From Alloascoidea hylecoeti (lineage: Eukaryota): 64,000 nt of DNA. Made by a program: the position numbers and the translations under genes. The notes beneath the pieces were generated by a model. It was not told where the DNA came from. It saw nothing but the letters and a program-made list of their open reading frames with translations, and did not search any database. The stretch is taken from the NCBI GenBank assembly GCA_001600815.1, contig BCKZ01000021.1:124001-188000 (forward strand), written 5' to 3'. Positions 16,701 to 52,991 of this stretch are shown here, piece after piece (the first letter of the stretch is position 1; each line of letters begins with the position of its first letter).

Positions 16701-17668
16701 ACCTCTACCACCACCACCAAACGCAGCTTTAATAATAATTGGAAATCCATACTGTTCAACAAACCTCTTTGCCTCTCCATATGTCTTAATTGGATCTGGA
16801 GTACCAGGAACAATAGGTACATTGCATTTATTTGCTAAATGTCTAGCGGAAATTTTATCACCAACTAACTCAATTACATCACCTGGAGGTCCAACCCAAA
16901 TCATTCCTGCATCAATAACTTTTCTTGCAAATGTCGGATTTTCTGATAAAAAGCCATAACCCGGATGAATCATATTAACACCAGTAGATTTTGCTATTCT
17001 AACAATTTCATCAATCTGAAGATATGCCTGTATTGGAGTAAATTGACCTCGTTTCCCTATTACATAACTGTATTTTAGTTTAATTTAGCACTGTATTATC
17101 ATTCGATCTTTGTTTTTAAAAAATCATTCACATACGCTTCATCGGCTTCTATAATGTTGAAAGATAAAAGAAAAAAGGTAAAGTTAGACATCGTAGAATA
17201 AATTCGGACTTTGGACTAGATAACATACTTTGTCGATGCATGGACATTCGGTCTTCATGTGAATATATGGCTACGGTTTGCATAGAAAGTTCATGGGCTG
17301 TCCTAAAAATCTAAAAAAATCGATTGCAATAGTTAATGACTGTTTGCTCCTTTAGTCAACAAAATTTCACACATACTCTAGTTGCTATAGAAGACGTGAA
17401 AATAAGCCCGATAATTAATTACTATTCAGGTACAACCAGACTATGTAACAACTTTCTAAAAAGACACACATACCAATTTCACCACGGTTTGCAACTAATT
17501 GGGAAAAGAAAAAAATAGAGTTAGAGTAATTGTTTTTACTATTGATCTTCAAATCATCTAATTTTTCAAAGCCATACCTAGAATTTTATTCATATCACCC
17601 ATTAGAGTATTATCGGCTCTAATTCTATCGAGAGTTTTTATATCATTATTTACCGCTGGGGCTGTCAT
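13749..17668 (-). CDS. PYC1: Pyruvate carboxylase, 6 exons
   Basis: Exons 17668-17578, 17494-17474, 17384-17377, 17310-17229, 17148-17136, 17067-13749 rebuild NKILVANRGEIATRIFRTAHEL..HRQKADEAY; also HPGYGFLSEN, RDAHQSL and the biotin site AMKM. Confidence 0.98.
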
Positions 17669-17960
17669 TTCGAAACCTGACCTATTTAACAAATTGAAAA
17701 TTGTGGAAGGATGGGCCTAAATATCAATCTCATCTCAGGGTAACCAATTTGTCACACTATTCGCATGCATAATGCATCCATGCATGGAATTATAACTCAC
17801 ATAGTGCCGGATAAATCATGAGACTCAATTATCTTATTAATCATAAATGTCCAAGTATTTATCAGCTGTGGATTGATATTATATCATACGTTCCTGTTTT
17901 CATTGATTTATTATGGTGCTATCTAAACTTGAATTTATGTTTTCATAATGCGATGTGTGA

Positions 17961-18091
17961 ATGAGTCATTTGAGTCATGCCATTAAACGAAGTTACCATA
18001 GAAAATGGTATACGTATAGTGTGCTACCGGTATACATGTACAGTATAGTTATGATATTCTAATTATAATTGAAGTTGATCGGCTGAGTCAT
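17961..18091. promoter_or_regulatory. Three Gcn4/AP-1 sites upstream of PYC
   Basis: TGAGTCA at 17962-17968, 17971-17977 and 18084-18090. Confidence 0.6.
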
Positions 18092-20152
18092 AACTAGTCC
18101 ATTATAATATTCATTACATGCTTCACTCAATCGCTATTATATAAGATTAATAGACTGATTCTGAATAAAGATTAATTTGAAAACTAAAAAGTATAGTATA
18201 CGACCTATAGATTTTATATAGATGATATCGATATCATTCATACTATAACTATATAAAATTATAAATCTAGAAGATAAAGAAGTAGATATTAAATTAATAT
18301 ATATACGTATACACTATAACTATTTCAGCAATTTTTATACGCACAGCTAGTATTCAATATATAAGCTTAATTATAAGTTATTCATACACCCGCTTTAAAT
18401 TTATATAATTATAAGTTGAAACTGTAATGTGATTCTAAATTTTCAATGTTAATACATAACTTATACTTATATCTGACTTCCAATAATACTATGCAATACT
18501 AATTTTAAAGGTAGAAAAATAATAATTTGTGATCATCATCAGCAATATATCATATTCGGATATCGATAGCACATCTATTTTTTGAATTAACTGGGCTAGC
18601 TGAATCAACTTGATTAGCTGAAGTAAATAAAATGCATATGGGTTCTCTAATAAATAGTTTGTTCTCATCATAAGTTTTATATAATTAATATTAAAGTGAC
18701 GGCAAAATAAGGAAAATATTGAAACTGAAACTAGAGGGAAATTCAGCTCCATGTAAGGTACTTTCTAAGCAGGGGGGGGATCTTTATGTTGGATATATTA
18801 CACTCTTAGAACAGTTCACTAAAGAGTCGATTGGCTTTTTAGCGCAACTGGGAGAACAGGCACTTTGGACTTTAACACTTTATGTATATGATATTTAGGT
18901 ACCAAATTGTTACTGATTTGAGCGATGCTTTGTCCTTAAAATATTGTATACTGTTCTGTAAGTTCTAGAGATCCTGTTAGTTTCGCAAATTATAATTATA
19001 AAATGACATTTTAAGTGAAGTATTTAGTGTTAGCGCCCGCAACTCTACAAGGCATATAGAGTATTAGGATCTCCAACCATGTACTCTAATTATAGTAAAG
19101 TAGGATCTCCTTTCCAAATTTCAATCCATACCATAAGTCTCATAAGGCAAAAGTTTCTAAAATATAAATATTTTAAGGTTAAATAGCCTAGAGTGACGGT
19201 TGTACTTTTCCAGATCCGGATGCTTAAAAGACAGAACTTTCAACACTAGCTAAATACAACACCACCCCAAACTTCCTGGGCCACTCGAATCTATCTTTAG
19301 ACCGTACCTTCTGTTACATAGCTTCTCATGTGGAAAGGAGCCTTTTATGTGCCGAAAAGTTCCATATCCATGTTTTTTCAGAAGGGTTCTTTGGATGGTC
19401 TTTCGAAAAAGGCACAATTTTAAACTTGACGCGTTCCCAGTATATATGGTAGTTGTAGATGAGCCTTACCATATGCATATTTATGTGAATGGCAGCTGTA
19501 TTATCATATCTTCTGTTTGTTAGCTGGTATGGATAGTGGACACAGTTATTGATATCAAATTTAATGTTACAAATTGTAGTGTGTACATACTAGTAAGTTA
19601 GTCTCCTATTTGAGGGATTAATGAATAGATGATTCTTCTAAAAAAAATCAATATTTATACTTCTAAAAACTTTATATCTTTTTACTAAATATGCATAGGT
19701 ATTCTTACAAAACGGGGTGTGTCGTAGATTACAACTTATAGTCCATCAAAGGTGCCAATTTCAGAATTAATACTTAAATATTGGAATTAAGTAGTTATCA
19801 GTATATCCAATGAACGATAGTTAATATGTTGCTCATATTCTTGTTTTATAATTCGTTAACCTTAAAATACTTTTATTCATTATTGATCTACCAATTCTTG
19901 TATAACATCTGATATCATGTAGTAAAGTGATATTTTTATAAGAATAAACACATTTTGAATGCAAGATAGATTTCTGATTGTTGACCATCTGATAAAGTTA
20001 TCCCACGTTCACTAAATTTCGTCTAATCACCAGTTATAACATATTCGACTTTTTTTTTTCATAGAGAAGTTTTTGGGTCGTTGATATCGTGATCAAGATT
20101 TTTATATTAGTCTACACATAATGACTAGGTTTTTAACGGATGTCATTGTTTT

Positions 20153-20434
20153 TTATTTTATTTTGAAGTTAATAAGAAGAAAAATTAACGACGAAGAGAA
20201 GCATCTTATTAGTAATAATAATATTGGAATATTATATATTTCAGCTATATTAGCTTCTCCAGCTTTTGAAACTAGTGATTTGCGAAAAATATGTTTAAAG
20301 TTTAGAGATGATAAAAACTGTTGGAAACGAACCCTGATAGCATGTTTCTTTTGTTGGTGTGAGTGGATAGATAAAAGTGATTTGTTATCATCTTTAATAG
20401 GAATAAGATCGTTTACAACTTCAGATTCTTTCAT
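20153..20434 (-). other. Small ORF of doubtful status (93 aa)
   Basis: A-rich start context (ATTACAATG); no recognisable family; overlapped by a 140 aa antisense ORF. Confidence 0.2.
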
Positions 20435-20505
20435 TGTAATTTATATTAAATCTGTCTGGGTTCGCTTTACTAAACACATCAATATACAATATATCGTAAT
20501 TGCTG

Positions 20506-20645
20506 AACTTATGTTTCGCAAACCAGTCGTAAATAAATTGTAATAATAAGAATTGAGAAGATTTAAACCACATATACTGATGACATTAATATCTATCTAT
20601 CTTAACTGGTAACTTATGTTTCGCAATTGGTTATAAATAAATTGT
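20506..20645. repeat. Degenerate direct repeat of about 35 bp
   Basis: AACTTATGTTTCGCAA-N7/8-TAAATAAATTGT at 20506-20541 and 20611-20645. Confidence 0.7.
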
Positions 20646-22286
20646 GATATATTTCTATTTTATTGTAGATTATTGATTGAAAGAAGTTCTTTAGAAAGAA
20701 GTGAACACAAGCTATTTAAATGAATAAACGACTTGTGACAATATCAATACAACATCTCAATATTAAAATGAAGATAAAAGAGATAATAGTTGAAAATAAA
20801 AATTATGATAACCAAACTCCAGCACTTCAGAATTAAGCTGGAAAATCATGGTAGTAAAATTTTATTACAATTATTACAAGATATTTATAATTCTACTCTA
20901 TACATTTTTATAGGTATTAGTATATAAGATTACTTCCTTACAAGGAAAGAGTTCCCACAGACACAATATCTCTCTGAATCAAAGCCAATTCTTTTCCGAC
21001 CTTTTCTTGCAACATACCATTTCCAATGGTTTTAGCAGTTTTCGACATCAGTCTTAACCTTTCCTCTAATATCTTCTACAATAGAAAGATATTTGATTAT
21101 ATCGCTGCCATTGTCAGTAAATTCAGTACGGTGAGGTTATTTACAGAATTCATTACCAAACTCAGCGAAGTTGGTGAACCAGAAACCAAAGCCAATGGAG
21201 ATTTCTTTCGGGCACATCAATCTCTTGAAAGCAGCTACTGAGGATTATACCTGGAAACCAATTGAGGATGCTGTTTTAACTGTTATGAACATGAAAAGGT
21301 ACGGTTGAGTGTGAATGAGATTTCCAGAGCTGATGCGACTCTTGAACTGGCAGATGAAGCGTGATTACTAAAGTGATTCTAGAGAATAGTGAAGGAGTTG
21401 ATGGTGGTTTCAAGAAGCTTCTGGGTCAGGTATGTCAGTGCACCCTCCCTTTTATGGAATATTGAGGAGAATTCCCCACTAAGGAAAGTAGATTTTTGGA
21501 GGGATATATAATTAACAAAGATATTTATTAATTTTTGGATAGTTTTCCTATATCTGTCTTTAACAATAATTTGTATTAAACATGGGTAACTAAACAGGTT
21601 CATTTATGTCACCAGGTGGCAGGTACGGTCAACTACTGGGGCTGTTCCTTATGGGAGCCACCTAGCTGATGACAATATAGTTGTCTTTCATATAAGCCAT
21701 TAATGATTATAAAAGGTGTAGCAATATAATGTCTTAGACATTCATGCTTGGGCAGACGTTGCAATGCTCATTATCAATAGATAAGTAATAAGTATATAAA
21801 TAGATCCAATCATCCAATTAAGATGAGCATGATACGGCTCATAGGCCTTAGGGGATATCAGAAATTAAAAAAATGAGTTTCATAGCCCATACCGATCATT
21901 TTTTTAGTGATCTAATTATAACATTTGGTATATTTTTCAATTGAGCCTCAGAATAGAAGATAGAGAACAGTTGCAGAACTACAATTACTATGTATAATAG
22001 TGTATATTGCGATAACGATGCTTGTATCTTAGCCTTCTAGTTGACATGAACATAGCCGATGTGTTCTCATATATACTCCGGTATGCTGAGTATTACGCCA
22101 AACGTTGGGGAGTAGGACGGCAGCTGACCACATTTCAATAAATATTCAGCCCCCTGAAACATGCTATTGCCAAGTTACTTATAATTAATTATATAAGTAT
22201 TCAGGAACCCTATTTATTTTTCTTTCTGTCCTCCATTCCAGTTCGCTACACTTTGAAATACTTTAAAAACAATCAAGATCATCAAA

Positions 22287-22889
22287 ATGTATATGTATTT
22301 TCCAACCTCAACCAGTGACTTATGTCCTTCCCGACTACTGGATCGTCGAAGCTTTGAATCAGACGTCACTTCAACCGCAAATTCTTTTAAACATTGGGAT
22401 ACATGCATGGATAATAAAGTCTGTAAAATCATAGCTATAGTGGGTATAGTTCTTGCTGTTATCCTTTTCCTATGGATAGTATTAGCCTTGGTTAGGTGTA
22501 TATGTATGGGAATTACTGGATGCTGTGAACTATGTTGTTTCTGTTGCATGTGCTGTCGACGAAACCAATCATACAGAAATATAGAGCAAAATAAGAAATA
22601 CGATGAAGCTATAAACAATCCTAATATGTACGGACAACCATTAGGACCTCCAGTTAAGAGTGCCTACCAGCCAAATACAATGGATGTCCCCCCTACTTAT
22701 GCTTCAAACCCAAAATATGATGATTCAGCTCCTTTATATCAGCATCAGGGTGGAGAAAATGAAGGTTATTATAACTTTAATAACACAAACAACTACAAAA
22801 ACCAAGGAGGAAATGATATGGAAATGGGTTATATGAATCAAAATACAGGATATATGAATCAAAATACGGGATACAAAGGTTATTCCTAA
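22287..22889 (+). CDS. PIN2: Pin2-like single-pass membrane protein with a prion-like tail
   Basis: SFKHWDTCMDNKVCKIIAIVGIVLA is nearly identical to S. cerevisiae Pin2 as I recall it; post-TM Cys cluster; N/Q/Y/G-rich tail with a 21 nt tandem repeat (GYMNQNT)x2 at 22827-22868. Confidence 0.85.
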   Translation: MYMYFPTSTSDLCPSRLLDRRSFESDVTSTANSFKHWDTCMDNKVCKIIAIVGIVLAVILFLWIVLALVRCICMGITGCCELCCFCCMCCRRNQSYRNIEQNKKYDEAINNPNMYGQPLGPPVKSAYQPNTMDVPPTYASNPKYDDSAPLYQHQGGENEGYYNFNNTNNYKNQGGNDMEMGYMNQNTGYMNQNTGYKGYS

Positions 22890-23921
22890 TTTCTAGAAAA
22901 TGCATCATCGTTTAACAAAGTTCGCATTTGCTTTAGTATTTAAATTTTATGATAAATCAAATCTTTGGAGAGCATTCCCTATCAGTTTGTCTGTTACTGT
23001 TTCTTCAATAATTATAGTAATTTTATGGACTAGTACCTGATTGAATTTTATGTTTATAACTATTAGTACCCCTAGTTATGTATTTTAGTCATTTTTTTTT
23101 CTGTTCATAAATATATTATTTGATAAGATTTAAATTGTATTCAAATTTAGTAAAATTAACATGACAAGTGGATTTGTATTTGAATAATTGGACTTTATTT
23201 GTTAGTTGGGAAACTTTTCAATGCGGATCATAAATCTCCATTTTTCATTCTTTAAAATCTCTGAGACCATCATGCTGACCCCCAAACACCATTCAGCACA
23301 AGTCTGGATATCTATTTCAGACGTTTTCTTCATGGTCCCCCTCAGTTTTTTAAAGATTCAATTAAGAATATCTTTATCTCATTACTACATAGTAAATAGT
23401 GCTATTGATAAAAATCTACTATGTCCAGGTTCCTTTTTTATTTCGAGAAAAACAAATTTAAACAAACCATGAAATGAATTCGATCTACAAGAAGAATATC
23501 ATATATTTGAGGCTCATTAACTAATCAATTTTCTTATTTGTAAGCCTATGATTACGATGTTATTTTTGAACGATCACGATCCCCGCGCTAATGTTGACTA
23601 CAGGAGGTACACGTTATTCTGAAACTTATATCAAAACTGTCTTAAGCTTTAATTTAAATCGACAGTCAGGCTCATGAGCTTATAATTATAGTGAAATAAT
23701 GCAAGCAGGTACTGAATTCTTTGATTTTCATATTTGATAATGTATAAGCCTCCATATTTGCCGACACCTCCATATCAGGTGCATATCCCAACTAGTAACC
23801 ATAAAAATCCACTCATTTCGTCATATATTTCCTACCACTGCGATCCATACTATAGCTAGACATAGGCTCTTCCTATTTTCCATCAATACTTTCTTTCTAA
23901 TGTTGGAACGCATCGCTTCAT

Positions 23922-24314
23922 CTACCAAAATCTAGCGGAAAATGGTTTCCAATTCCACCAATAAATGTAATAAAAAAACCTAGCTATACTTCTTTTCTTT
24001 TTCTTTTTTGAACTTTTCGTATAAATTGTTTCATCAAATACTGTCAGTCTATATGGATCATTTATTTCGTGATCATTTCTTGTTGTTGTAGTAGCAGTAG
24101 TAGAAGTTGCTATCGTAGTATAACTCATGTTGTTATCATAATTAGATTGTTCTCTAAATTTAGCTTTTGAATTTTCCTGCCTTCTATTTGAACTTAAGAA
24201 CCGAAAACATTTTATTTTATGATTGTCAATTTTCTTTGAATTTTTCTTTGATGATGATGAAGAAGTTTTACGTGTATGTGTATTGGGAATTTCACTATTA
24301 CTGGCCAAAGACAT
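23922..24314 (-). CDS. Orphan basic protein (130 aa from first ATG)
   Basis: ATG at 24314, T-rich leader and TATA-like sequence upstream; Ser/Thr/Lys-rich with an aromatic C-terminus. No family recognised. Confidence 0.45.
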   Translation of the reverse strand: MSLASNSEIPNTHTRKTSSSSSKKNSKKIDNHKIKCFRFLSSNRRQENSKAKFREQSNYDNNMSYTTIATSTTATTTTRNDHEINDPYRLTVFDETIYTKSSKKKKKRSIARFFYYIYWWNWKPFSARFW

Positions 24315-27300
24315 GCTCAAATTAAATATGAATTAATTTAAATCAGATAATTGTTATTTAGAAAAAGAAGAAAGAAGAAAAGTTTTGAAAATAACAGGGA
24401 AATATCATTAATAAACCAAAAAATGTGAATTTAAAGGTAAGAATACAGCTGTTATATATTAACATGCAAGTTATAATATCCGGAGTAAATGGGTCATAAT
24501 AATTACAGCTGATCATGATTACATGTAATATTAATTATGAACAGATTCGAGTAAGATTTACTCCTCAGCTATAAGCTTGTTGCAATTGTGCGGAGTTTGA
24601 ACTGCCTTTAAATTTTACTTTAGCTTCCTATCTGCAAACAGATCATTAATCAATGCCAAACAAATTTAACAAACAATCACTCTCAAAGATTCTAGACCTT
24701 TCATCACTATTGGCAACAATCACAAAGTAGAAGTAAGTATGTCAACTTATATTGACAGAAAAACATTAAATTTAAGGGCCTGATGAATCATTGTTAATTT
24801 TAAGGCTGGATCATCGCGATCGTATACGTAGCTTCGTTTCAAATACTTCTGACATAAACTATATTATAATTAATAATCTTACCACATTATGTTATCATTA
24901 TCACCAAATAAGAGCTCAGAAACAAACATTTAAATTAGGTCGTGTTTGGTATTTTGATTTCCTGATTCAATTTTTTTGGAAAATTGCTGTTTCTAATTAA
25001 TTATTAATATTCCAATATTTAGTATGGCGATTAATTAGATATCGCCGTACCCATTCTAAATCCTCTTTCTCTTTACCTTTATAACACTCAAAATATATCA
25101 CTACATACGTAAGAAACATGTTAATGTTACATGTTAACATTCAATATTGTTGTCAATTCCAAATGTAAACGAATTTACTTAATTTAATTTGCATAATTAT
25201 AAATTGTCAATTTAAGCATTTAAGCTATTTAAATAAATCTCAATTAGCTATAATTAAGCCTTTCAGTTTGATTTCGAAACATCACCTATTTTAATACACG
25301 CCACAATAGAAAAATGTCTAGCGATTACATGACAGGAAACTAATTATATTTATTCACAAGTACCCTTCTTTCGGTCATATTTATATAAATTTCTATATAA
25401 TTTCTATAGGTAACATAAATATAACTACATAACAGTTCATTTCTAGAATCGGGCATTTTTTTCATCTTCATCTTTTTTTTGTCGCTTTTATGCTGAAGTT
25501 CAGATGAACAATGAGAATTCGATAAGATATACTTACCTACGGCCTTATATCTTCATATTTCATTATGGCCAGGCTGAATATCAAAATATCCCTCCTATTA
25601 TATACGGCTTGTAGTAACTATCATGGAGAGATGTAGATATTCGCTAGAGAGGTATTTTGCCTATACGTATTATTAGGAGAGTTAATCAATAACTCTTGGA
25701 TATCCATTTGGGAACAGTGATAACTAGAGGACATTAGGAACCCAATAACTGACTAGGAAGCTCTACTTCGGGATAGTTAAGGGACCAACACCCAACTCAC
25801 CTTGATAATAACAACAGCATAAACCTTTAAACCGGCCAATATCTATTGAAGTAAATTCAGACTCCCTGGACTTATTAATATAATGATATTGACAATGAAC
25901 TCGACTAAAATAAATCTGTTCACTAATTCTTAATTTAAACAACATACAAGTATATATTCATTTCCTTTTGTAAAAAATGGGCGTGTATTAAGTCAATAGG
26001 TTCATAAAGAAATCATCATTATTATTCGATGAATATCCATTCAATCCTACAAGACAACTCATAAGTGATTTGAGCAAAAAATGTAATTCAAATCGATAAT
26101 AAAGAATATCATGAGCACCATACCACCTTTACCCGGACATTATTGTCATCTTATAATGTTAAACTATTTCAATGTATTTTCAAAGATGATAATTTATTAA
26201 GTATTTACTACTTCTTAAAATAAACTAAACGAAATAAAGTAATATATGCATAGAGCTACATTCAGCTTCGAACATATAACAAAGAGTTACTATATAAAGA
26301 TCTTCATTTAATTATAACACTTTCTTTAACTAGTTCGACAATAATAGCTACAAACATATTGTCACAGACCACGAGTTGGGTTCGATGGCCAGTTGGGATC
26401 ACCGTATTAGGAAAAGATTATATAAGCTTATAATTTCTTTCAGTAGCTAGTAATCGTTGTTGACAAGATCTAGTGTGCATCCAGCATGGTCTTTCACGAG
26501 TGATGAACCACCGACTCTCTAGAGTCATTAATGCCTTGGACAAATCAAATTTAACTCCTTTGCCATTATCAACTCTATAGAATTGAGGGTTCATAACCTG
26601 TGAAAGATTTGTGACTCCATTCATCTTTATATTGCAGATGTCTAATATTGAGGTGGATGAGGATATCAATCTTTGACAATCGTTATTTTTTAAAATTTCT
26701 TGAGTATTGATATTTTGAATTAGAAGTGCTGGTAGAGACCTTTTCTTGGTTTCTTGTTTTGGCTTTTAAATATAAGTTCAACGTAATGAGATATATTCAA
26801 ATTACTGAACCAAAATAATTTTTTGATGATCTCGGCTATAGATTCTTATCTTTCTTAAACGAATTACAATATGCTTATATCAACGTTAACTATTTAAACT
26901 TCAAAGCTAATTGTATTAATATGTAAAATCACAAATTCTCCAATTAATTTCAGGATACTATTCATCAGTATTCCGCAGTCTACTCAGAGTATTAATATTG
27001 ATTAAGCGCCTTCACCGCCAAGTGGTTGAAAAAACAAAAACAAAAAGGCTATTTTGTGCGATTTATGATATCAATTAGTAAAAATACTAGTATGGTACAC
27101 TCTTTTCTGGTTTATTGAATTGCCCGAAAAAAAATAATAATAATAAAAACTGATACAATTTAAGACAAAGTGTGATATATGGGAATTAATTCTCTATCAT
27201 TTTAGATCGTCTATTCTTTTTATACTTGCAAATTATTCTATACTGGAACAATTCAATTTATCTTACCTATACTGTACTTTGTAAAAAAAAAGTTATCCTC

Positions 27301-27748
27301 GATTGGGATCTTCTTGACTCTGTCAATCATTAGGCATGTGATGGCGGCAGTTTATATAAGGTTATGGTGTGCCACTGAAAATGATACGAATCTCGAGAGC
27401 GCTATGCATGCACTCATCTATATAAACTAGATTTATTGTTGATATGCACGCTATGTCTAATTCTATTTCTTAACGATGCGAAATCAGAAAAAATCCTACC
27501 GACGGCATCAATTTGCTTTACCCGTGGTTTAGAGCATAAATTAAAATTTAAAACTTTATGATGGATTTAGATCATAGCGATTTAATACCTTGAAATTGAA
27601 GCCCGATGTGACTAACTAAAGTAACTGCCATAATAGTAAAGAAGTACTAGTACTGTGACAACTAAATGATAAGATATAATCAATGTAAGCCCTTTTTCTC
27701 AAATTATTATACAATTAAATAATAGTAAAAGAGTCTAAAAAGTTTGAA

Positions 27749-27754
27749 CCTCGG
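27749..27754. promoter_or_regulatory. CCTCGG, FarA/Ctf1/Por1-type fatty-acid response element
   Basis: Exact CCTCGG about 215 bp upstream of a peroxisomal thioesterase. Confidence 0.45.
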
Positions 27755-27966
27755 TAGCATGGAAAAGATGACGTAATACCAAAAAGATGTTCAGTGTTAT
27801 TAATCACACATAGAAAATTTGCAAAGTCAAAGTTTAATATGCCAACTACATATATAACGTTTAAAATAACATGCCTCAAATTTCATATTAAGAGATTTTT
27901 TTTGCTCTATTTAAATCGTTTCTCCGCATTTTTCTTCCCAGCTGATAACAATATTATATATTAACA

Positions 27967-28925
27967 ATGCCATCAAACATATTAGATGATTTAGAAATTA
28001 AGGAATCACCAGATATCGGAACAGATACATTTCAAAATGTCTATCCGTTATGGAAAGATAACGGAGCATTAGGAGCGTATGGAGGTTGTTTGGTATCTCA
28101 GTCCTTAAAATGCTGTTTTCAGACATTGGGAGATCAATTTAGAGCTCATAGCATGCATTGTTCCTATTTAAAAGGAGTGAGTAACTTTGTATAGTGATTA
28201 ATTCATAGTTATTATATCTAACCTATCTTCATTTTGATCTATAGTGTGACGTTGCTAAACCGGTGGTTTATAAAGTCAATAGAGTGCGAGATGGGAGATC
28301 ATTCTGTACAAGAATCGTTGAAGCCTATCAGGATAACATTTTGATTTTTATAACAACAGCATCATTTCAAGTTCCAGCTAAGGACAAAAAACAGGTGAAA
28401 CACGGAAGGGATTTCCCAATTGGCAAATCCTTACAGAGAGAAATTGCTAGAATAGCTGAGGAAAATAAACAGCAAAACACTCCAGGACTTTGGAAATGGA
28501 TCTATGGACCATTTAATTCATCAGGTGAAATTGATAAAAGTGATTCTTTATTGACCGAAGAAAGAAGATCATTAATTTATTTAAAAACTGAAGTTCCCCC
28601 AAATGATAAACGATTAAATCAAATAATTTTAGCATATTTTTCGGATGCTTTTATGATGGCTTCTGCAGTTGCCGCAAATGATCTTAATGTTCGAAAGGAT
28701 ATTTCAATGCTTGTTAGTTTAGATCATACAATTTACTTCCATGAAGATGATTTTGATGGAAATGATGGACTTCTTCATATTGTTAAATCTCCTTGGACAG
28801 GTGACAATAGATGTGTTTCAACGGGAGGAATATATACAGATACAGGGAAGTTGCTTGCAAGTACTATGCAAGAAGGAGTTGTTAGATTTAGAAAGACCCC
28901 AGAAGAATCAAAAGCAAAGCTATAA
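27967..28925 (+). CDS. TES1: Peroxisomal acyl-CoA thioesterase II, 2 exons
   Basis: Intron 28177-28244. GAYGGCLVSQS, HSMHCSYL, RVRDGRSFCTR, LAYFSD, VSLDHTIYFH, QEGVVR; C-terminal PTS1 AKL. Confidence 0.92.
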
Positions 28926-29130
28926 TTTTCGAATTTGTAACTGCAACGTTGTGATTAATATTGATATAGAATAATAGGCTAATAGACTAATAGACTCATA
29001 AACTAGAATAATAGAGCGCGAAATAGAAATAACAATTAATCAATAGAGTAAGCTAAGTATTATATACTTGATAAATTATTCAATGGATTGAATATTCGGT
29101 TACCTCAATAGTGGCCGAAATTAGTATCTC

Positions 29131-29238
29131 TCGCCATTTGGCGATGCCAAGAACAAACGCACAGCCCGGGTATGCCCATTTACGAAGCAATACATTAATG
29201 CACCTGGTTCCAGCCACTCCGGTCACGTGGATCACGTG
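29131..29238. promoter_or_regulatory. Metallothionein promoter elements: 14 bp palindrome and tandem RTCACGTG E-boxes
   Basis: TCGCCA-TT-TGGCGA 29131-29144; GTCACGTG 29222-29229 and ATCACGTG 29231-29238. Confidence 0.55.
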
Positions 29239-29389
29239 GATATTGAGAGGTTTGTGCTTCCAAGAAAATTGTGCGCCAAAAAACTATAAGAACGGCCACA
29301 ATTGCACCTGTTTTTTCATCATTTCAATTTCAAATCATCAAATCAAATCATTTCAAATCAAATCAATCTTATCATAACAATAACCAAAA

Positions 29390-29575
29390 ATGGCCTGCGC
29401 TTGTTCTACACCATGTACCTGTGAAAAAATCTGTAAATGCGGCACCGAGTCAAAAAGCTGTTCTTGTGAATCTGAATGCTCCTGTGAAAAATCCTGTTGT
29501 TGCGATAACACCCCAGAACCTAAAAGCTGCTCTTGTGGAGATAGTTGCAAATGTGAAAATGAGTGCAAATGCTAA
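29390..29575 (+). CDS. Metallothionein (61 aa, 19 Cys)
   Basis: CxC clusters, no aromatic residues, strong AAAAATGG start context, A/C-rich leader. Confidence 0.92.
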   Translation: MACACSTPCTCEKICKCGTESKSCSCESECSCEKSCCCDNTPEPKSCSCGDSCKCENECKC

Positions 29576-29882
29576 TTATATTATACACATGAATCTTAAT
29601 GAGCTTTTAAACTCATAATTATGCCTGGTACAATTTAAATGATGTCTTATTTAATTTTTTTATATTTATATTATTATTTAATATTATTTTTTGGAAAATT
29701 TCACAATGTATTCCGTCGAATATAATAATTGTCACGCATGTGTGTTGTACTTTAGTCCTTAGCCCAGCCAATTGATCATCCCAAAGTAGTCGCTAGCTGA
29801 CTTTCGCTGACTTATTTTTATACATAAACGGAGAACAATCCTTTAATTTTCATCAACCCTTTTTTTCCTTTAAACTCCAAGC

Positions 29883-30503
29883 ATGCATAGTCTACTATCG
29901 AAATTAAATATAAAGAATTTTAAAAACAAATCTTCAGGCGAGGATGCTCCGCCCCCATATTGTGTTGTTGATCCACTACCACCTTATCAGGACAACAATT
30001 TCAAGTCCAAAAACCAAAATAATGCCACTTCAGTTATCATCAACGTGAATGTTGATAACGAAGACACTTACAGCACCATTATCACTGATCATGAGAGTAA
30101 CTTAATTTCTCACTCTCAACCACTTTTAGGTCTGGAAAAGAAACAAAACAGTCTAAAAGCAAACAAATCCTCAACTAAACAAGAATCTATATTTGACCTT
30201 ATTCCAGTCTATCTCCCACATTTAGATCCAAATAATACAAACAATTGTAAAGTATCAACTACTAGTATCCAAAGAAATAGGAGGTCAAACAATAATCCCA
30301 GAAAAAATATATCTAGCAAATCATATGCTAACGTTGGTTCAACCTTTGGAAAGAAGCCAACCAGACCGTTATATCAAAATAGTAATGGTCCTGTTGGTTG
30401 TATGCCTATAGGTGACGATACTTATTATACATATTATGGTAGAAAACCTGCTGTTTTGGCTTGTATCCCAATAGGTGACCATGATGATGATGGTGGTAAT
30501 TAG
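29883..30503 (+). CDS. Orphan 206 aa protein with two PY motifs
   Basis: Long ORF for AT-rich DNA; PPPY and LPPY near the N-terminus; duplicated C-x-PIGD motif at the C-terminus. Confidence 0.7.
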   Translation: MHSLLSKLNIKNFKNKSSGEDAPPPYCVVDPLPPYQDNNFKSKNQNNATSVIINVNVDNEDTYSTIITDHESNLISHSQPLLGLEKKQNSLKANKSSTKQESIFDLIPVYLPHLDPNNTNNCKVSTTSIQRNRRSNNNPRKNISSKSYANVGSTFGKKPTRPLYQNSNGPVGCMPIGDDTYYTYYGRKPAVLACIPIGDHDDDGGN

Positions 30504-33145
30504 GCTTAGGGATCTGTCTACCACGGCTGGTAGCTATAGCTAGTCTCATAATTAAGCACTCTTTTTTGTTATATTAGGACTAAATATGTATGCTAGTAAC
30601 TATAAGTTACTATTGCTAGTTTTGATTTATATACGTTTGAGGAAGTATTAGTTTCTTTTTTTGTTTCTAATTATAGATGGGTAATTATAAAGTATTACAT
30701 GGTCATGATTGTAGTAATAGCTATACTATATGTTTTGCGTCACCAGTGTTTGGTTTTACGTTTTAGATTAATAATTCGGTCACATGATGTAATAATATTC
30801 GACCAGTCATATCACCTAATTTCGGCCACCTTTATGTTCAAACAATAACATTATCAACACTGGTGCCCGGTTTTTCAAAAACTTGAAAGGTCTTAAAATG
30901 GTCGATATTAATCTAAAACAATGTACTTAATTTCATAATTGTCATAAATTAGTATAAAACACCTCAAACTTCGTGTTCATGTTTTTAGTCACTGCTTAAT
31001 TATTATATTCTGTGGGTGCCTGTGTTTTAATATTAATAAGTCAATAAGCGATTATACTCGCTTTTTCGCATTTCATGGAGATAATGTTATAAATAGAACA
31101 TCGATTTCTGCAATTGTAACATCTAAATTTTATATGAATACGATCATGACTACAGTAACAAAATATTACTAACATTACATAATTATAAACATCGATATAT
31201 ATCTGTGATCTTGGAGTTGAACCTTCTAGATTTCTATCCAATCTGATCTATATAAGTCTTGGTACAATTGTAACATGTCATATAAGATCTATATAGCTAG
31301 CTGAAGTAGATTTAGGCCCATACAATCAACTTAATTAATCCAATATTGCTGAGTGATTTTTCCAGTTTCATTTTTAAAATATAGCTACATGTGCTGCTGT
31401 ATGTAGTAGACATTGATAATAATAATACCGTTAAATGCACGCAAATCTTTGATAATATTGAGTAGATAATCAAGAAAAATATTCGGGCAGGATTGAGAAG
31501 AGTATCTGAGAGAGTTCATCGATAATTATTCTATACTATAACTGATAATAGTAATTAGACTTATAGCTCTAGGCTCTGTTTTTTAGTTTTCCCGGCTTAA
31601 GGTTCTCCGGTTTCTCGTTTCCGTCTCAAATTGATTCTCAATATAGGATTATATATACCTATTTTACTCTTTTACGGAAATTTAACTTAGATTATTGGTA
31701 CAGGTACATGTACCTGCTTTCCAACTTTTAATCTCCAATAAAGCTAACCAGTTTGTAAAACTAAACTAATATCCAATTCTAAGAGTTTGGAATAATTTAA
31801 TACATCGTTGCAATTGCAACCATAATTTTCCGATTTTGAATCTTTACATTTCAAATATTTAGTTCTACTTGGTTTTTTCTATAAGCGCTTAATTAAGTTT
31901 GAACTCTTAGAGTCAATATAACTTATACTCGTGTAGGGAACCACAATTAAATTGTGATTAAAAATTCATGATCAATTGCAATGGAAAGATCATACAACTC
32001 ATGATTTGATCAGAGATATTTCCGACACTTCCAATTTCTCACGACTAAGATCAGAATAGAAAATATAAATACTTTCAATACCTTAATTATTATAATACCA
32101 TATGTGGCTATATGTTCTAGAAATTCCCTGTTTAATCTTAAAAATTTATAATTATTTTTTTAGACTATATATGAGATATAATTAGTAATTAATTACCATC
32201 ATCCACAATGCGGATATGTCACTTATTATCAAGATAAGAGATCAAATATAATATTTGAAATATTCAATATAATTCCATTTACAATTAAAGAATTTCTATG
32301 ACTCCGGGTAATGAAACATTTAATAGCAGTTTTACTACATCTAAATAATTAATTTAAGTCTTTAATTTCAAAATGTAGTTGAGCAGCTCTTCAAGAAGTT
32401 CCTCGATCCTGGAATCAAATATTTCAAATTTAGTAATATGCATCTCTAGCTTATGGTTAACGATAATGTTGCAACTGTTTACAGTCTAATTATGGCCATA
32501 TACTTTATTGTGGCAAAGAACCACTGCTATACTATATTTATAATTAGTACCAATTTATAATAGTGGGCATTAATAGAGTAATTAATAATAACTGCAATAT
32601 TCATTGCATTACAATTGCGATATAATAGATCATCTAATATATTATCGGTTATATTTCCCCTTCCACATCTTCGTTGATTGTTTCTATCAAATACATGTCA
32701 GGATATGGCGCGGATCAAGTTTATTGTCATGCTTCTCGTGGTGATTGGCGGTATCGAGCTGGCGACATCTTACGTAAGTATTATATAATACGGAGGCTAC
32801 AGCTGGCCAATTGGAGAGGAGCACATACGCATCATATTCCAGAAAGATTCTTAAAGAAGGAACTAGTCGGCTTTCCAACCGATAAATTATTGAAAATGGG
32901 TAGCAATTGGCATGCGAGAGAACAGCGAACTCGAATCGGGAAATAATAATGCTATCGGATATGCCGTTCAGACGCACTCGGAGATGCCAACTTCTGGATC
33001 GGGAAGCGTGCGGTTGCCGTGCAGTTTCTGTTGCAGCGCCAAGTCCGTCACGTGCGACACTGCAATATATAATAACGAATATTAGTGGCTGCTGCGCTGC
33101 TTTTCTCTTTTTCTTTCTGATATCTGACAGAGAAATATTGAACAA

Positions 33146-39831: not shown

Positions 39832-39903
39832 AGGTCGTGCCCGGGATCGAACCGGGATCGCCAGAATCAAAATCTGATGTGCTAGCCATTACACTACACA
39901 ACC
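39832..39903 (-). tRNA. tRNA-Gln(TTG), intronless
   Basis: GGTTGTG...CACGACC acceptor stem, anticodon arm TCAGA-TTTTGAT-TCTGG, T-loop GGTTCGATCC, followed by a T6 Pol III terminator. Confidence 0.97.
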
Positions 39904-46588: not shown

Positions 46589-47305
46589 ATGTCTTACGTA
46601 AATCTGGAAACCTCATTTGTAAGAGATATCAATTACGTGTAATTACTTTTCATCATGCTACTCTAACACATCCATAGGGTACAATTATTATAGAGCTGTA
46701 TAACAATCACGCTCCAAAAACATGCCATAATTTCGAAGAACTGGTATGCTTTTTGTCTCTATCAACAATCTTAACGAATATTAATATGAACTAATGACAA
46801 TAAATCCCGCTTAAATATCTAAAAAGGCTCGGAAAGGATATTATAACAATGTGGTTGTAAGTTCAGCTATAATTATTGAAATGCTCCAAGATCCAATAAA
46901 GAAAACTAACTAAACTATCTTTAATCTGGTTAGTTCCACAGAATTATTCCAAACTTCATGATTCAAACTGGTGACCCAACAGGCACAGGAACAGGTGGTG
47001 AATCCATATATGGTTCTAAATTTCCCGATGAAATACATCCTTCGTTAAAACATACAGGTGCTGGTGTATTATCAATGGCTAATGCTGGTCCTAATACAAA
47101 TGGATCTCAATTTTTCATAACATTGGCTCCAACTCCTTGGTTAGATGGGAAGCATACTATATTTGGTAGAGTGTTTAGAGGTTTAAGTGTCGTGAAGAAA
47201 ATTGGAAATCTCAAAACTGATGAAAGTGATAGACCGGTTGAGGATGTTAGAATTCTGAAAGCATATCCTATAACAGAGTCGGATTTAGAGGAATTGGAGT
47301 TTTAG
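46589..47305 (+). CDS. Spliceosomal cyclophilin, PPIL1-like, 4 exons
   Basis: Exons 46589-46618, 46678-46743, 46827-46856, 46934-47305. [56 protein letters not shown]. Confidence 0.9.
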
Positions 47306-48051
47306 TTAACTGGAAAAGTTCCATTTTCAACTAATTAAGTTGGTAAATATTATTGTATATGAACAAATGAACATTTTATCAATGGGTTTCACTAAAAATA
47401 GCAAACAACACTATATCACAGTTAACGTTGAAATATAATTAAAAAATGAAACTTGCGTGTATCAATCAGGATTTCCAAACACGTTACACCTCCAATTACT
47501 ACCTATAACTCCGACAATTGTCAAAATATCTATATGAAACATTAAATGGACCATAATTATACCTAATTGACCTGATGTCTATTAAAGCGCTGTGAAACTT
47601 GAATCTAAATCAAAGATATAATTTTCAGTTCAAATCATCTTATTTGGGAAATGAATCCCTCGAAAATGATATTACTATTATATATATCATAGTAAAAGTA
47701 TTATAAACTTTACCTATGCATAGTTTTATATTTACAACACAGTGAACACACTAATATATCCTATAATATAGAAAATACATGAAAAACTGTTGGATAATTA
47801 ACGAGTAAAAACAGTGATCTAGAAAAGAGGATCAAATAAGATTAATCCTTATTTCCACTGAATTACCAGAGATTATCCTTTAATATTGGTGATGATAAAT
47901 TGTATTTAAGATGTTAAATGGTTATAAAAGCATCTTAGACAATTGAGGATAGACAAAAATTGTCAATTCCACCGATTACCACCGTTTCATTTGATAATTA
48001 CTCAGTAATATTGATTATTTATTATAAAATGGTGTTATTTATGGTTAGACC

Positions 48052-51000
48052 TTAAATATTTTGTTTTGCTCTTAATCTCGCTGTTTTAAATCTACTAAAT
48101 TTTATTTCTTCTCCATTTTCATCAATGGGCTCGAATTCTTTCTCTGCATCAGTTTTCATATACCCACCCTGTTTATAAATCAATTTTTGTCGTAATTGTT
48201 GATACTGGTAAGTTACTTCTCTATGAAGAACATCTGGATGCACACTATAATCATCATTATACTCATCATAATCATTTGTGGTTATATCTTCATCTTCGTG
48301 TTCAACAATTTCCGTAAGAACTGGCCCTTTTTCATCATCGCTGTTTACCTCTGATTCGATCTCATCTTCGTCTTCATTCTCTGGGGGATTAACTTTATTG
48401 AAATCATTTAACTTTTCGATGATTGTACCAGACGGTGTGACATCATCATCATAGACCCCAATGGAGTATGCCTTGGCCATCATATCGAGATCATCACCCA
48501 TTGATCGATAATCTACTGAAAGCTTTCCGTATTTTTGGGGATCAGTTGAAGTTGTGTCTTTTGTAGTATCAGATGTTATGATAGGATGTTCTTTTTTTGG
48601 TGCAACATCTTTATTTATAACTTTAGGGAAATAGCTACGACCATTAGAAGATGTAGATTTAGATGATGCGGCTGTATTTTTACTCCTATCGTTTACATTT
48701 TTTGGATGTGGTTTAAACTTTGATCCATTTTTGGATTTATCAGTATTTTCATCTTGAATAATAGTTGTCATATTTCCTAAATTGTTTGAATCCGATGATT
48801 CAGTAATAACTGAACTAATAATCTCAAAATTTGTATTATTATTATTATTATTATTATGGGTACTTGCGGGCTTAGAAATGGCTTTCCCTTTCGTTTTTGC
48901 TAAATTTGATTTAAATCTTGATTGTTTTTTAGGTTGATGATTACTATTGTTATTCAAATCATTAGATTCAGTGATTGGACGTTCAATGATTGTATTAGCT
49001 AAAATTGGGTTTGGTTTGGGTTCATTTTGTTTAATATCATTATTAATACTTTCTCCAGCTGGAGAAACAAAACTTTTAGGATGATGCATAATATGCCTTT
49101 TTTCATTCTGTGGCGTGTGTTTATTTTTCTTTAGACCAGATTTAAATACTGATACTTTTGGCGTTGACCTAAGAGATTCTTGAATTGAAGGATTTTTGCT
49201 GGAATTCATATATTTATCATCTAAAGATCTTGGAAGTTCATTTGGCCCAACTGTAAAATTTTCATTGATAATACTTGTAACTGGTTCATGTTCAGTAATA
49301 GTGTTTTCAACTATTTTTCCTGAGTCATTATCATCGTCTTCTGTCCGTTTAACCAACCTCTCGATTGGCATGTCTTTATGCCTATTAGCTTTAAAACGGG
49401 ATACTTTAGGTTTTGACCTAGGAGTTTCTTCATCTTCCATCTGGGGATTTTCTTCTTCATATGTTTCGTTTAAAAGATTTAAAATGCCTTGTTCAACACT
49501 GATATTTGATTTCTCATGCTCTAGATTTTGTCTAAAGAGCGAAGGTTTACGAATTTCTATTCTTTCTTCAATTGGAGGTTCCTTTTCAAACTCCTTAATA
49601 TCTAGATTCGTTGCAAAACTAACAGATTTTTTGGTGATTTTTTCTTTCCCATTCTTTTTATCATTTGAAACTGACTTCGAGTTAGATGTCGATTTCGTTT
49701 CTTTTTTCACTTCTAATTCTTCGATTTCGTGTATTTTCTTCTTCTCTCCATCTTGTTTCTTTTTCCTCATATTGGCTATTTGTGACCAGAATAAAGTTTG
49801 TGCATCTCCTCCTGGAATAGCAGAGACGGTACTATAATGTCCATTAAATGAATATGTACTTTCATCTTCATCATATTCGTCCTCATCACTATAAGGATAA
49901 TGATATTCATTATCACCCTCTATATATTCATCTTCTGTATCATCGAGATCATCTGCTATTATATTAAGCGTTAAGATACTCTCTGGATCAATTGCTGGCT
50001 TGTAACTATTGTCCAATTCATGTTTAGGCTCTTCATTTGTTTTTGACCCCAAGGAATTCGAATTTGCTTCAAGAGACGGATTTTTACTTTCAGCATTTTG
50101 TAACACAACTCGATTATCATCAATTTCTTTTTTAGTGATTGGAGCTTTAATTTCTTCCTTGGGGGTTTCAGGAATCTCTTTTGTATTGGGATGGGGTTCA
50201 TGTCTTTTTGAAGGATGAATAAATGCAGAGGATTTGTTTTCAGGAATTCTATTAACTTGTAAAAAATTCCAATGATGATTTACTAACTTCTTGAGTGAAA
50301 ATTCAATTTTTGATTGAAATATAATAAATGTGGATTTATTTGGATCAATTTCACTAGATAAATTATTAATTTGATGTGTATATGTGCTACCATTTAATAA
50401 AGGAAACTCAACTTTTATTGAATATGGTTTAAAAATAACTTTAGTCTTATCCTTTGGTGTATTTTTAATAAATAAGGATATATTGACTTCAGAAGGGGTT
50501 TGAAACCAATCATGATGAATTTTTTTAACCTGTGGTCCGGTGACGCTACTAATATTTGTTATTTTCGTTGAATTATTCTCTGTTGATGTATTAGAGCTTT
50601 TTTTATTTGCTTTAGAGGATAAATCGAGATATTTTGTTTTCTTATTTTTCTTGGTCGTATCAGACAAATCATTATCAACCTTTGTAGTAGGCTTATCAGC
50701 AGACAGATTATTGGAATTCCTGATTTCTCTATGAATAGAATTATTTTCCTTTTTCTGTGAAGACGAGGCTTTCTCCAGTGTACTAGGTTTATCTACTATT
50801 TCTTCAATTTTAGGAACAGTTTTAGTCAGGATCCCATCGTTCCCAGTTGGTTTATCAGCTATTCCCAAGTCTTTCATCATTACTCTTAAGTCATCAATTT
50901 GTAAGTCTCTTGTGTCAGGTTCCTGATGCCTTGTGACAGAGGAGTCTATAACATTTCCTTCCTCATCCAGTTGTTCCATTATATTCATGAAGGGTAATTC

Positions 51001-51443
51001 TTCATCGTTATTGTGATTAGGTACAGCTGTAGACTTTTCTTTCGATCCTTCATCAAGATAATCCAACATATCTTCTAATTTTTTCAGTGTTTCTTTTGCA
51101 GATTCTATATTTGTTTCAAATTCATCGATTGTCTTTTGCACACCTATAATGAACATTTGTTAGTCCAATTTTCATCGTAAATTTCATGACTATTAAAGAA
51201 CTTACCACTCAACCTTCTATTTAACATCACCTTAGCCTGTGGAGGGGATCTTTCAGCAAAATAGTTCTCCCCTAAAGCCATCATAATTTTACCATCTGCA
51301 GGGCTTGAATCAACATTTTTTTGTAGCAGTAGATATTCGTCTTTCCTGTCCTCAAGAGCTTTCTTTTTCTTGGTAAGACTTTCTATCGTTCCTGCCACCT
51401 TATCTCTAATAGCAGACAATGGGTCTATCGTAACCTTGCTCAT
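48052..51443 (-). CDS. BUD27: Bud27/URI unconventional prefoldin with an internal CS domain, 2 exons
   Basis: Intron 51205-51144. Alpha-prefoldin-like N-terminus (ALGENYFAERSPPQAKVMLNRRL), EELPFMNIMEQLDEEGNVI, DYRSMGDDLDMMAKAYSIG, EV..QYQQLRQKL, terminal SRFKTAR. Confidence 0.85.
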
Positions 51444-51533
51444 ACTATTATAAAATATACACTATGGGATGTACTCTACAAATATAAAGAAAATTTATAC
51501 ACCACGTGACTATGCTAATTAATTATCTGATAT

Positions 51534-52991
51534 TTAAAACCTACACAAGAATCTCTTTCCAATGCAGACATATCGGGCTGCAGCCCAAGCGAAAACTCCA
51601 ACAACAGCTAGAAGCCCGGTATAAATAACAAATCGATCATAGTGTTCTCCACTGGAACCGATTAAAGCTCCGGCAATGGGAATATCTATCAGGTTAGAAA
51701 AGGATATTACAAAATACATGGTTCCATATCTTTTACCAAAATCCTCTGTTCGGCACACTTGACCGCAACACGCAGGAGTAAGTGTTAACACTCCCCCAGA
51801 GCCAAATCCATATAATGCTGAAAATGCAAAGAGAACAGGTTTTTTATGCCCAAATGGAAGCCACATCCCAAAAGCCAAAATGGCCAAGTATGCAGTTGAG
51901 ATTACCATGGTATTAAACCTCCCAATTTTATCAGATATATAACCTGGACCCCATCTTCCTGCAATACCACCAATGTTCATAATTGATAATAAAAGATATG
52001 ATTCAGATATTGACATTCCATGCGCTAAACCATATGATGCTAAATATGTTATCACGTTAACCATACTCAGGTCGCTAAATAAAGCTGCTGCCACAGTAAA
52101 CATATATTTTGAGTCCTTTAAGGCAGCTATATCAATTGTTTTGGCTAAAAGTTCGTTTATTTTTAATGAATTTCTTGGTAATCTTCCTTTCATTAAAACA
52201 ATTGAGCACATTATGCAAAAGAAACAAATAAAACCTAATATCCTTACTGCCCATGGGAATCCAACTTTCGTATACAATGCTCTCAGCATGATTGGAAATA
52301 CAATCCCTCCAATTGATCCCCCAACAGTTGCCGTACCCAGTGCCATGCCTCGTTTTCTCAAGAACCAATGACTGACTATAGATATCATTGGTGTCGCAAG
52401 TAAAGAAGTTCCAATCCCACAACCAACTCCTAACGCTAACATGAATTGATAATATTCAGTGCAAAGGCTCACCATCATTAATGAAAAACAATAAATACTA
52501 GATCCAATTAAACATAATGTATTGACTCCATATGCATCAAATATTGGACCTACGAAAACGCCTCCAAAGTAGGACAGGAACAAATAAACTGAAAATATCC
52601 ATCCGATATTTGAGGAAGAGAACGCTTTTAATTGATTTTCTTGAACATATGCTTGTAAAGCACCAATAGAATTGATAAATCCAAAAGTTGCAATAAGACC
52701 CATAAATGAACCTAGAACAACCAACCAAGCTTTCGAGCCACCATCTGGAAATGTTTCAACATCATCAAGACCATATAAGAGGGAAGATGGTGTATCCGGC
52801 ACTGGTTCTTCAATTGTCAATTGTTCAAATGGTTGGTTGATATTCTTTTTATTATCTATTCCTGATGTAGCTGATTGTTGAATTGCCTTTGGTGTTGCTG
52901 GAATATGATGATCTTGATAAGAACCCAAAGATCCAGAGTCATCTAATGTCTGTAGTTGCCCATTGCTGAGAGAGAGAGTTACCAAACTCAT
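51534..52991 (-). CDS. MFS monocarboxylate-transporter-like protein (Mch4/Mch5 type)
   Basis: FPDGGSKAWLVVLGSF, GPIFD.YG, HWFLRKRGMALG, D.IGRFN, DFGKRYGT; about 12 hydrophobic segments. Confidence 0.9.
   Translation of the reverse strand: MSLVTLSLSNGQLQTLDDSGSLGSYQDHHIPATPKAIQQSATSGIDNKKNINQPFEQLTIEEPVPDTPSSLLYGLDDVETFPDGGSKAWLVVLGSFMGLIATFGFINSIGALQAYVQENQLKAFSSSNIGWIFSVYLFLSYFGGVFVGPIFDAYGVNTLCLIGSSIYCFSLMMVSLCTEYYQFMLALGVGCGIGTSLLATPMISIVSHWFLRKRGMALGTATVGGSIGGIVFPIMLRALYTKVGFPWAVRILGFICFFCIMCSIVLMKGRLPRNSLKINELLAKTIDIAALKDSKYMFTVAAALFSDLSMVNVITYLASYGLAHGMSISESYLLLSIMNIGGIAGRWGPGYISDKIGRFNTMVISTAYLAILAFGMWLPFGHKKPVLFAFSALYGFGSGGVLTLTPACCGQVCRTEDFGKRYGTMYFVISFSNLIDIPIAGALIGSSGEHYDRFVIYTGLLAVVGVFAWAAARYVCIGKRFLCRF

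Follow-up and report, generated by a model that had tools for sequence, protein, structure and literature searches.

A CS domain of the Sgt1 type within a Bud27/URI-like protein of Alloascoidea hylecoeti, a candidate dock for Hsp90

Can a prefoldin-like protein of the Bud27/URI type carry a dock for Hsp90 within its own chain? This question is raised by a gene of Alloascoidea hylecoeti, which lies in a stretch of 64,000 nucleotides (assembly GCA_001600815.1, contig BCKZ01000021.1, positions 124,001 to 188,000 of the forward strand), called the window in the following and numbered from its first nucleotide. The whole gene, from start to stop codon, occupies 48052-51443 on the minus strand. Its product is an intact Bud27/URI orthologue in which a variable, disordered linker has taken up an additional domain, and this inserted domain is a true CS domain which is closest to the CS domain of Sgt1 by sequence as well as by fold. 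Both parts are known as such; their combination makes a new domain architecture. An original prediction, made from the nucleotide sequence alone, had proposed both the domain and its host; what became of it is told along with the results that bear on it.

Is the inserted block really a CS domain, and of which kind? It extends over 50260-50523 on the minus strand, corresponding to residues 212-299 of the open reading frame (ORF) that contains it and to residues 287-374 of the spliced protein. The Pfam profile CS (PF04969) matches ORF residues 214-290 (50287-50517) over profile positions 2-78 of 78, with E 1.4e-12 and 48.9 bits (cut-off 21.3), far more than chance would give, and the block of 88 amino acids (aa) alone gives E 7.9e-15 and 56 bits. 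Hence, the proposed domain is present, and the interval of 50255-50525 given for it lies within 5 bases of the limits found here; the strand had been left unstated, and the block KIHHDW...HWNFL is read from the minus strand, the plus strand at 50255-50525 being full of stops. An AlphaFold2 model of a 128-aa segment, computed with 29 aligned relatives, is a seven-strand beta-sandwich with a mean predicted local distance difference test score (pLDDT) of 84.6 and values of 92-98 for residues 21-110, as had been expected of the segment. In a Foldseek comparison of this model with the PDB, the top four matches were Sgt1 CS domains (2jki_S, 2xcm_C, 9q8o_B and 1rl1; TMt 0.82-0.89, root-mean-square deviation 1.6-2.0 Å), p23 came at ranks 5-6, Shq1 at rank 20, Sba1 at rank 22 and the CS domain of PIH1D1 at rank 49 (E 2.9e-3). 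Altogether, 28 PDB matches were obtained at E<=0.001, and those shown were either CS domains (Sgt1, p23, USP19, NudC, Shq1) or small heat-shock proteins of the alpha-crystallin type.

The sequence comparisons likewise point to Sgt1. Against the PDB, the domain matched the CS of human SGT1 (1rl1, E 4.7e-11), the Sgt1 CS of 9q8o (E 1.9e-7) and those of plant SGT1 (2xcm, E 1.3e-5; 2jki, E 2e-5), followed by CacyBP (E 8.6e-4), Ncb5or (E 0.011) and USP19 (E 0.026), while p23, Pih1 and Shq1 were absent at E<=1. A domain of the Pih1, p23 or Shq1 type was accordingly rejected, as the PDB sequence and Foldseek rankings favour Sgt1. A HMMER scan of 1.84 billion representative sequences resulted in 448 matches at E<=0.001, the best of which is the protein P0002 (E 1.7e-21, 47% identity); the counts of relatives given below refer to the 150 best. 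Local phmmer comparison detected an SGS domain in 112 of these and similarity to the N- or C-terminus of Bud27 in none. When 31 of the matches (the top 29 and the two longest) were scanned with Pfam, 28 proved to contain CS and SGS and three CS without SGS, and neither DUF3835 nor Prefoldin occurred in any of them. The closeness to Sgt1 that had been noticed at the outset is thus upheld by the PDB sequence matches, by fold and by the company which related CS domains keep.

The protein itself is not an Sgt1 orthologue, because it is devoid of SGS and TPR, neither of which was found in the ORF by Pfam at E<=1. Moreover, P0002 matches only 50152-50598 of the window, its SGS part giving no tblastn match there at E<1. 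An SGT1 gene merged or fused with BUD27 was considered and rejected, with SGS and TPR missing and Bud27 sequence present on both sides of the domain. Rejected, too, was a component of R2TP with a CS of the Pih1/PIH1D1 type: the PIH1 domain was not found in the ORF by Pfam, there is no Pih1 sequence match at E<=1, and the Foldseek rank of the PIH1D1 domain is the low one given above.

What, then, is the host? The minus strand holds an ORF of 1034 codons at 48052-51156, which is preceded by an ORF of 99 codons at 51144-51443. The original prediction had assumed a single long exon; this did not hold, as the gene has two exons, separated by a predicted intron of 62 nucleotides at 51144-51205, and the CS domain lies inside the long second one. 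The intron begins with GTAAGT, contains the branch site GACTAAC and ends with TAG, its removal restores the frame, and the N-terminus of the spliced product (1109 aa in total) aligns without gaps across the exon junction with P0152, one of three Bud27 homologues retrieved. These are P0001 (893 aa), the one match from a search with the whole ORF, P0152 (1170 aa), the one match from a search with the C-terminal 135 aa, and L001, an ORF of 592 aa which is the one confirmed relative among the matches listed in a metagenome pattern scan with at least 598 matches and which looks, by eye, to come from a filamentous ascomycete. The gene model as a whole is based on the two ORFs, the splice signals, the Prefoldin, CS and DUF3835 matches and the alignment of the N-terminus with P0001 and P0152.

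Exon 1 (51206-51443, minus strand) encodes the N-terminal part of the prefoldin-like domain in 79 codons and one base, which is indicated by its alignment with P0001 and P0152 and by a match to Prefoldin (PF02996; E 3.7e-5, 24.1 bits with the cut-off at 23.2) that covers residues 48-78 and profile positions 56-86 of 120. This match is partial because the intron, located inside the prefoldin-coding part, splits the domain. Exon 2 (48052-51143, minus strand, including the stop codon) encodes the end of the prefoldin coiled coil, a conserved motif, a linker, the CS domain, acidic and basic low-complexity regions and finally DUF3835 (PF12927). The latter, the C-terminal conserved box of URI/Bud27, spans ORF residues 947-1028 (48073-48318, minus strand), matches profile positions 2-78 of 78 with E 9e-21 and 74.9 bits, and is conserved in P0001 and P0152. 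The conserved motif is LPFMNIMEQLDEEGNVI (ORF residues 54-70; 50947-50997, minus strand), which we take to be the Rpb5-binding stretch. It is common to all Bud27 homologues retrieved, where it follows directly after the prefoldin domain with the pattern LPxxxIxE(E/Q)LDE(E/N)G(N/G)VI, reads LPxxxIxEQLDEEGNVI in this gene and LPLTEIMEELDEEGNVI in the L001 ORF, and has L54, P55, I59, E61, L63, D64, E65, G67, V69 and I70 as invariant columns. In its order of parts, the protein equals Bud27/URI1, with Prefoldin at the N-terminus, an LPxxxIxEELDEEGNVI motif, an acidic low-complexity middle and DUF3835 at the C-terminus. Both the assignment of the host to Bud27/URI and the position of the motif segment ahead of the CS domain had been called correctly, the former now being backed by Prefoldin, DUF3835 and the homologue alignments.

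The CS domain is located between the LPxxxIxEQLDEEGNVI motif and the acidic region. Its flanks are rich in S, T, N and K, of low complexity and modelled with a pLDDT of 50-65, in agreement with the disordered linkers described beforehand. In a three-way alignment with P0001 and P0152, the domain falls where both have gaps or unrelated linker. Among the four Bud27 sequences compared, it occurs in this one only: P0001 and P0152 contain Prefoldin (E 1.3e-11 and 6.3e-7, respectively) and DUF3835, whereas no CS was found in either by Pfam at E<=1, and the L001 ORF has alike end motifs and no CS-like block, as far as its translation could be read by eye.

Could the combination simply be an artefact, caused by a chimeric assembly, by wrongly joined parts of a gene model or by splicing that removes the coding stretch from the transcript? 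What speaks for this explanation is that the gene model was predicted from DNA only and that one intron exists in another part of the gene. Against it, Bud27-homologous sequence lies on both sides of the CS domain within one uninterrupted frame of 1034 codons, and the sole 5' splice site of the forms GTAAGT, GTATGT or GTAAGA in the gene is the one at 51205. Furthermore, the runs X1, X2 and X3, which stem from three studies, each cover 47800-51700 with one separately assembled contig, showing 0 differences and 0 gaps, so that the check for a chimera proposed earlier came out in favour of an intact gene. X1 is a wood-decay metagenome, X2 and X3 share one organism label, and all three carry a flag as runs from which the window may stem, hence they do not all count as independent support. 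The base composition is host-like as well: the CS-coding part has a GC content of 0.235 and a GC content at third codon positions (GC3) of 0.148, compared with a GC3 of 0.233 in the rest of the ORF and of 0.175-0.269 in four other genes of the window. Taken together, it is very unlikely that the assembly is chimeric or that foreign DNA was inserted recently, and an artefact of any of the above kinds is barely credible. As the CS-coding part is free of CTG codons, a reassignment of CUG would leave the domain unchanged.

Two observations on the same data may be added. The small word shares of X5 and X6 did not represent relatives, the one long piece of X5 being an identical fragment of 305 nucleotides. 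Within exon 2, an A-rich stretch of 36 nucleotides at 51070-51105 is matched by a second contig in all four runs, with 1 mismatch and small indels, beyond which the sequence is unrelated; this is probably a short low-complexity repeat present elsewhere in the genome.

Where did the domain come from? The nearest relative, P0002, is a protein of 333 aa with CS and SGS, showing 43% identity over 125 aa in BLASTP (E 4e-30) and 50% over 94 aligned CS columns. In a tree of CS domains it is sister to the query with a support of 0.77, and the next clade out holds a plant CacyBP and a CHORD protein of a chytrid. The tree that had been suggested as a check places the domain next to a protein with CS and SGS, yet it is poorly resolved, and with 95 columns and CacyBP and CHORD in the next clade, no specific donor can be named. 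The close Sgt1 proteins that carry names belong to Saccharomycotina (Geotrichum, Cyberlindnera, Sugiyamaella, Komagataella), Taphrinomycotina (Saitoella) and several Pezizomycotina. Most likely, the part of a fungal SGT1 that encodes the CS, probably from the lineage's own gene, would have been duplicated into BUD27. The insertion is not recent, given the identity of about 43-50% to the nearest Sgt1 and the host-like base composition. P0002 looks AT-rich, and its record, like that of the ORF under study (P0180), names 'NCBI, Logan' as the source and has no accession. Possibly P0002 is the Sgt1 of this organism, in which case SGT1 would have been retained.

Such a history also leaves room for a neutral passenger, in which a duplicated piece of SGT1 would have settled in a tolerant disordered linker and would do nothing there. 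The insertion site is indeed a variable linker, gapped in the homologue alignment, and the searches brought up no orthologue sharing the insertion, hence no conservation is shown. However, despite the age of the insertion, the domain still matches the full Pfam profile with 49-56 bits, its fold is modelled with a pLDDT of 92-98 between flanks of low complexity, and seven of eight interface positions, described below, stay within the range of Sgt1. Since decay would be expected of an old neutral insert, an intact CS domain disfavours a passenger, which we regard as improbable.

How widespread is the architecture? It had been stated at the outset that no Bud27/URI with a CS domain was known, and this is in line with the three homologues retrieved and with full-text literature searches, in which no description of such a protein was found. 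The same searches gave no mention of DUF3835; where Bud27 and a CS domain are named in one paper, the passages are unrelated, and the passages on Bud27 examined from papers that also name Sgt1 do not report a link between the two. To our knowledge, Bud27 of Saccharomyces cerevisiae and human URI1 do not contain a CS domain either. Among 80 candidate proteins of 568-1810 aa, none matched the CS region, and ESM Atlas queries, made with the complete ORF as well as with its C-terminus, yielded nothing usable. These database results have to be read with a caveat. The 1034-aa ORF itself is recorded as P0180 (48055-51156, minus strand) in a cluster of 7 members under an unrelated representative of 34 aa, the other members likewise being unrelated 34-aa peptides; for this reason the ORF failed to find itself. 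Relatives may likewise escape detection, and absence from representative-based searches is therefore weak evidence. InterPro domain-architecture tables might already list Bud27 proteins with a CS domain. On the sequences at hand, a sample of three distant homologues, the insertion is likely lineage-specific, to an extent that this sampling does not bound.

What might the domain do on Bud27? Its resemblance to the CS of Sgt1 suggests docking to Hsp90, and the contacts by which Sgt1 holds the chaperone offer a means of comparison. According to passages of PMC2556094, Sgt1 CS contacts the N-domain of Hsp90 through Tyr157 and Phe168 of Arabidopsis Sgt1a (AtSgt1a), with supporting contacts by Arg153, Glu155, Thr166, Lys170, Lys221 and Glu223. 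Mutants of Tyr157, Phe168, Lys221 or Glu223 are described there to bind Hsp90 more weakly, and Lys221 and Glu223 are presented as two polar residues identical across species. The equivalent positions were located by alignment with 2xcm, the residues of which were numbered by hand; the numbering reproduces T166, F168, Y199, T220, K221 and E223 of the paper. Four of the eight contact residues are identical to AtSgt1a, namely Phe168, Lys170, Lys221 and Glu223, and these are shared by 76, 137, 147 and 146 of the 150 best relatives, respectively. Three more are replaced by residues common in Sgt1 proteins: Glu155 by Asp (the same in 84 of 150), Tyr157 by Phe (36) and Thr166 by Ser (67). The remaining one, Arg153, is His here, a residue that occurs at this place in 0 of 150 relatives (Arg in 114, Lys in 30). 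The Phe in place of Tyr157 (motif HDWFQ, about 50503-50505) is also present in the named Sgt1 of Cyberlindnera fabianii.

On this basis, we lean towards the lone Sgt1-type CS acting as an Hsp90 dock on Bud27. Through the CS domain, Hsp90 would be held directly on the scaffold of Bud27, whose prefoldin-like part and conserved motif would supply the client side, and one polypeptide would thereby join a client-holding prefoldin-like module with a dock for Hsp90. A more far-reaching proposal, which we put forward as tentative, is that in this yeast lineage Bud27/URI has turned into a direct Hsp90 co-chaperone by capture of the Sgt1 CS, so that RNA polymerase (Rpb5) assembly might be coupled to Hsp90 without R2TP, a bypass or supplement of R2TP having been envisaged at the outset. 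Regarding the polymerases, Bud27 is stated to promote the Rpb5-dependent assembly of all three. That a lone CS could suffice for docking is compatible with text of a preprint on yeast Sgt1 (10.1101/2025.04.24.648904), where CS is reported as the main contributor to Hsp90 binding, acting more strongly on the middle domain and weakly on the N-domain, while the SGS domain carries the essential client function. The PDB entry 9q8o is a crystal structure of CS with the Hsp90 middle domain, as given by the PDB listing and the preprint.

Several points weigh against the docking of Hsp90. The His at the Arg153 equivalent is without precedent among the relatives compared, and the Phe at the position of Tyr157 loses the hydrogen bonds described for the hydroxyl of this residue, which is termed 'absolutely conserved' in a passage of PMC2556094, yet Phe at this place has the counterparts counted above. 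The interface comparison covers the contacts to the Hsp90 N-domain only. CacyBP and the CHORD protein are mixed into the next clade of the poorly resolved CS tree. In addition, the representative-based searches found no orthologue with the same insertion that would reveal purifying selection on the domain, and CS domains of Shq1, Pih1 and NudC are reported to bind partners other than Hsp90 in parts of PMC9406135.

The last point leads to another explanation, by which the domain would be functional as a general interaction or holdase module for a different partner, be it another assembly factor, Rvb1/Rvb2 (as in case of the Shq1 CS), a CHORD protein or a part of Bud27 itself. Besides Shq1 and Pih1, the same source cites DNAAF proteins for CS domains with non-Hsp90 partners (PMC9406135, in the passages concerned). 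The contact to the N-domain might be weaker owing to the unique His at Arg153 and to Phe in place of Tyr157, and no SGS helix follows the CS. On the other hand, the domain is specifically like Sgt1 and not like Shq1 or Pih1, and it retains the equivalents of Lys221, Glu223, Phe168 and Lys170. A partner other than Hsp90 is unlikely, albeit a serious competitor to the proposed Hsp90 dock.

Comparison with known systems shows what such a dock would add. The Sgt1 CS domains (1rl1; Arabidopsis Sgt1a in 2jki and 2xcm; 9q8o) provide the best match in sequence and fold, with the N-domain contacts largely kept; in contrast to Sgt1, the CS domain here stands alone in another protein, without TPR or SGS and with His for Arg153. 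In p23/Sba1 and NudC, the layout is similar in that a CS dock is followed by a long disordered region, and text of the above preprint describes their tails as disordered with client-binding helices (10.1101/2025.04.24.648904). As matches, however, p23 and Sba1 are weaker than Sgt1, both in Foldseek (ranks 5-6 and 22) and in sequence (no match at E<=1). The closest parallel in concept is the R2TP/prefoldin-like complex, in which a URI scaffold is likewise joined to Hsp90 for RNA polymerase assembly. In metazoa, as outlined in passages of PMC9406135 and PMC4341119, URI1 is linked to Hsp90 indirectly within this complex, the PAQosome, by the R2TP subunits RPAP3 (TPR) and PIH1D1 (PIH and CS). Unlike in R2TP, the link in the protein described here would sit in one polypeptide and would probably run from the CS domain to the N-terminal and middle domains of Hsp90, without TPR-MEEVD contacts or Rvb1/Rvb2. 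We know of no stable R2TP/prefoldin-like complex described from other fungi. For yeast Bud27, the review passages cite Rpb5-dependent polymerase assembly only, and an excerpt of a proteomics study lists Bud27 among the proteins that are less abundant in a yeast Hsp90 mutant (PMC11151932).

Further features of the window concern the surroundings of the gene. Neighbouring genes look interrupted at 46958-47305 (+), 13749-16973 (-), 2979-5267 (+), 9960-10631 (-) and 12782-13267 (+): a cyclophilin ORF begins at profile position 50, a pyruvate-carboxylase ORF is without most of Biotin_carb_N, an eEF1A-like GTPase is divided between two ORFs, and the MTHFD-like and RabGAP-TBC matches are partial. These interruptions suggest a genome that is more intron-rich than that of a typical Saccharomyces-like yeast. 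A region of about 16 kb (~17100-33100) contains short open frames only, the longest having 226 codons from stop to stop, and two of its ORFs that were scanned gave no Pfam match at E<=1e-5. With Rfam, a single tRNA gene at 39832-39903 (-) was the sole element to reach the gathering score anywhere in the window.

If Hsp90 does dock on this domain, the fusion of Bud27 with the module by which Sgt1 holds the chaperone would speak, independently and from the side of evolution, for a direct functional link of Bud27 to Hsp90, and it would constitute a natural 'Rosetta-stone' fusion, implying that the separate Bud27 and Sgt1/Hsp90 of other fungi cooperate in one pathway. The CS of Sgt1 would then be a dock that can be carried over to other proteins. 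With its approximately 90 residues, the domain offers a simple experimental handle, as it can be tested for binding and can be removed.

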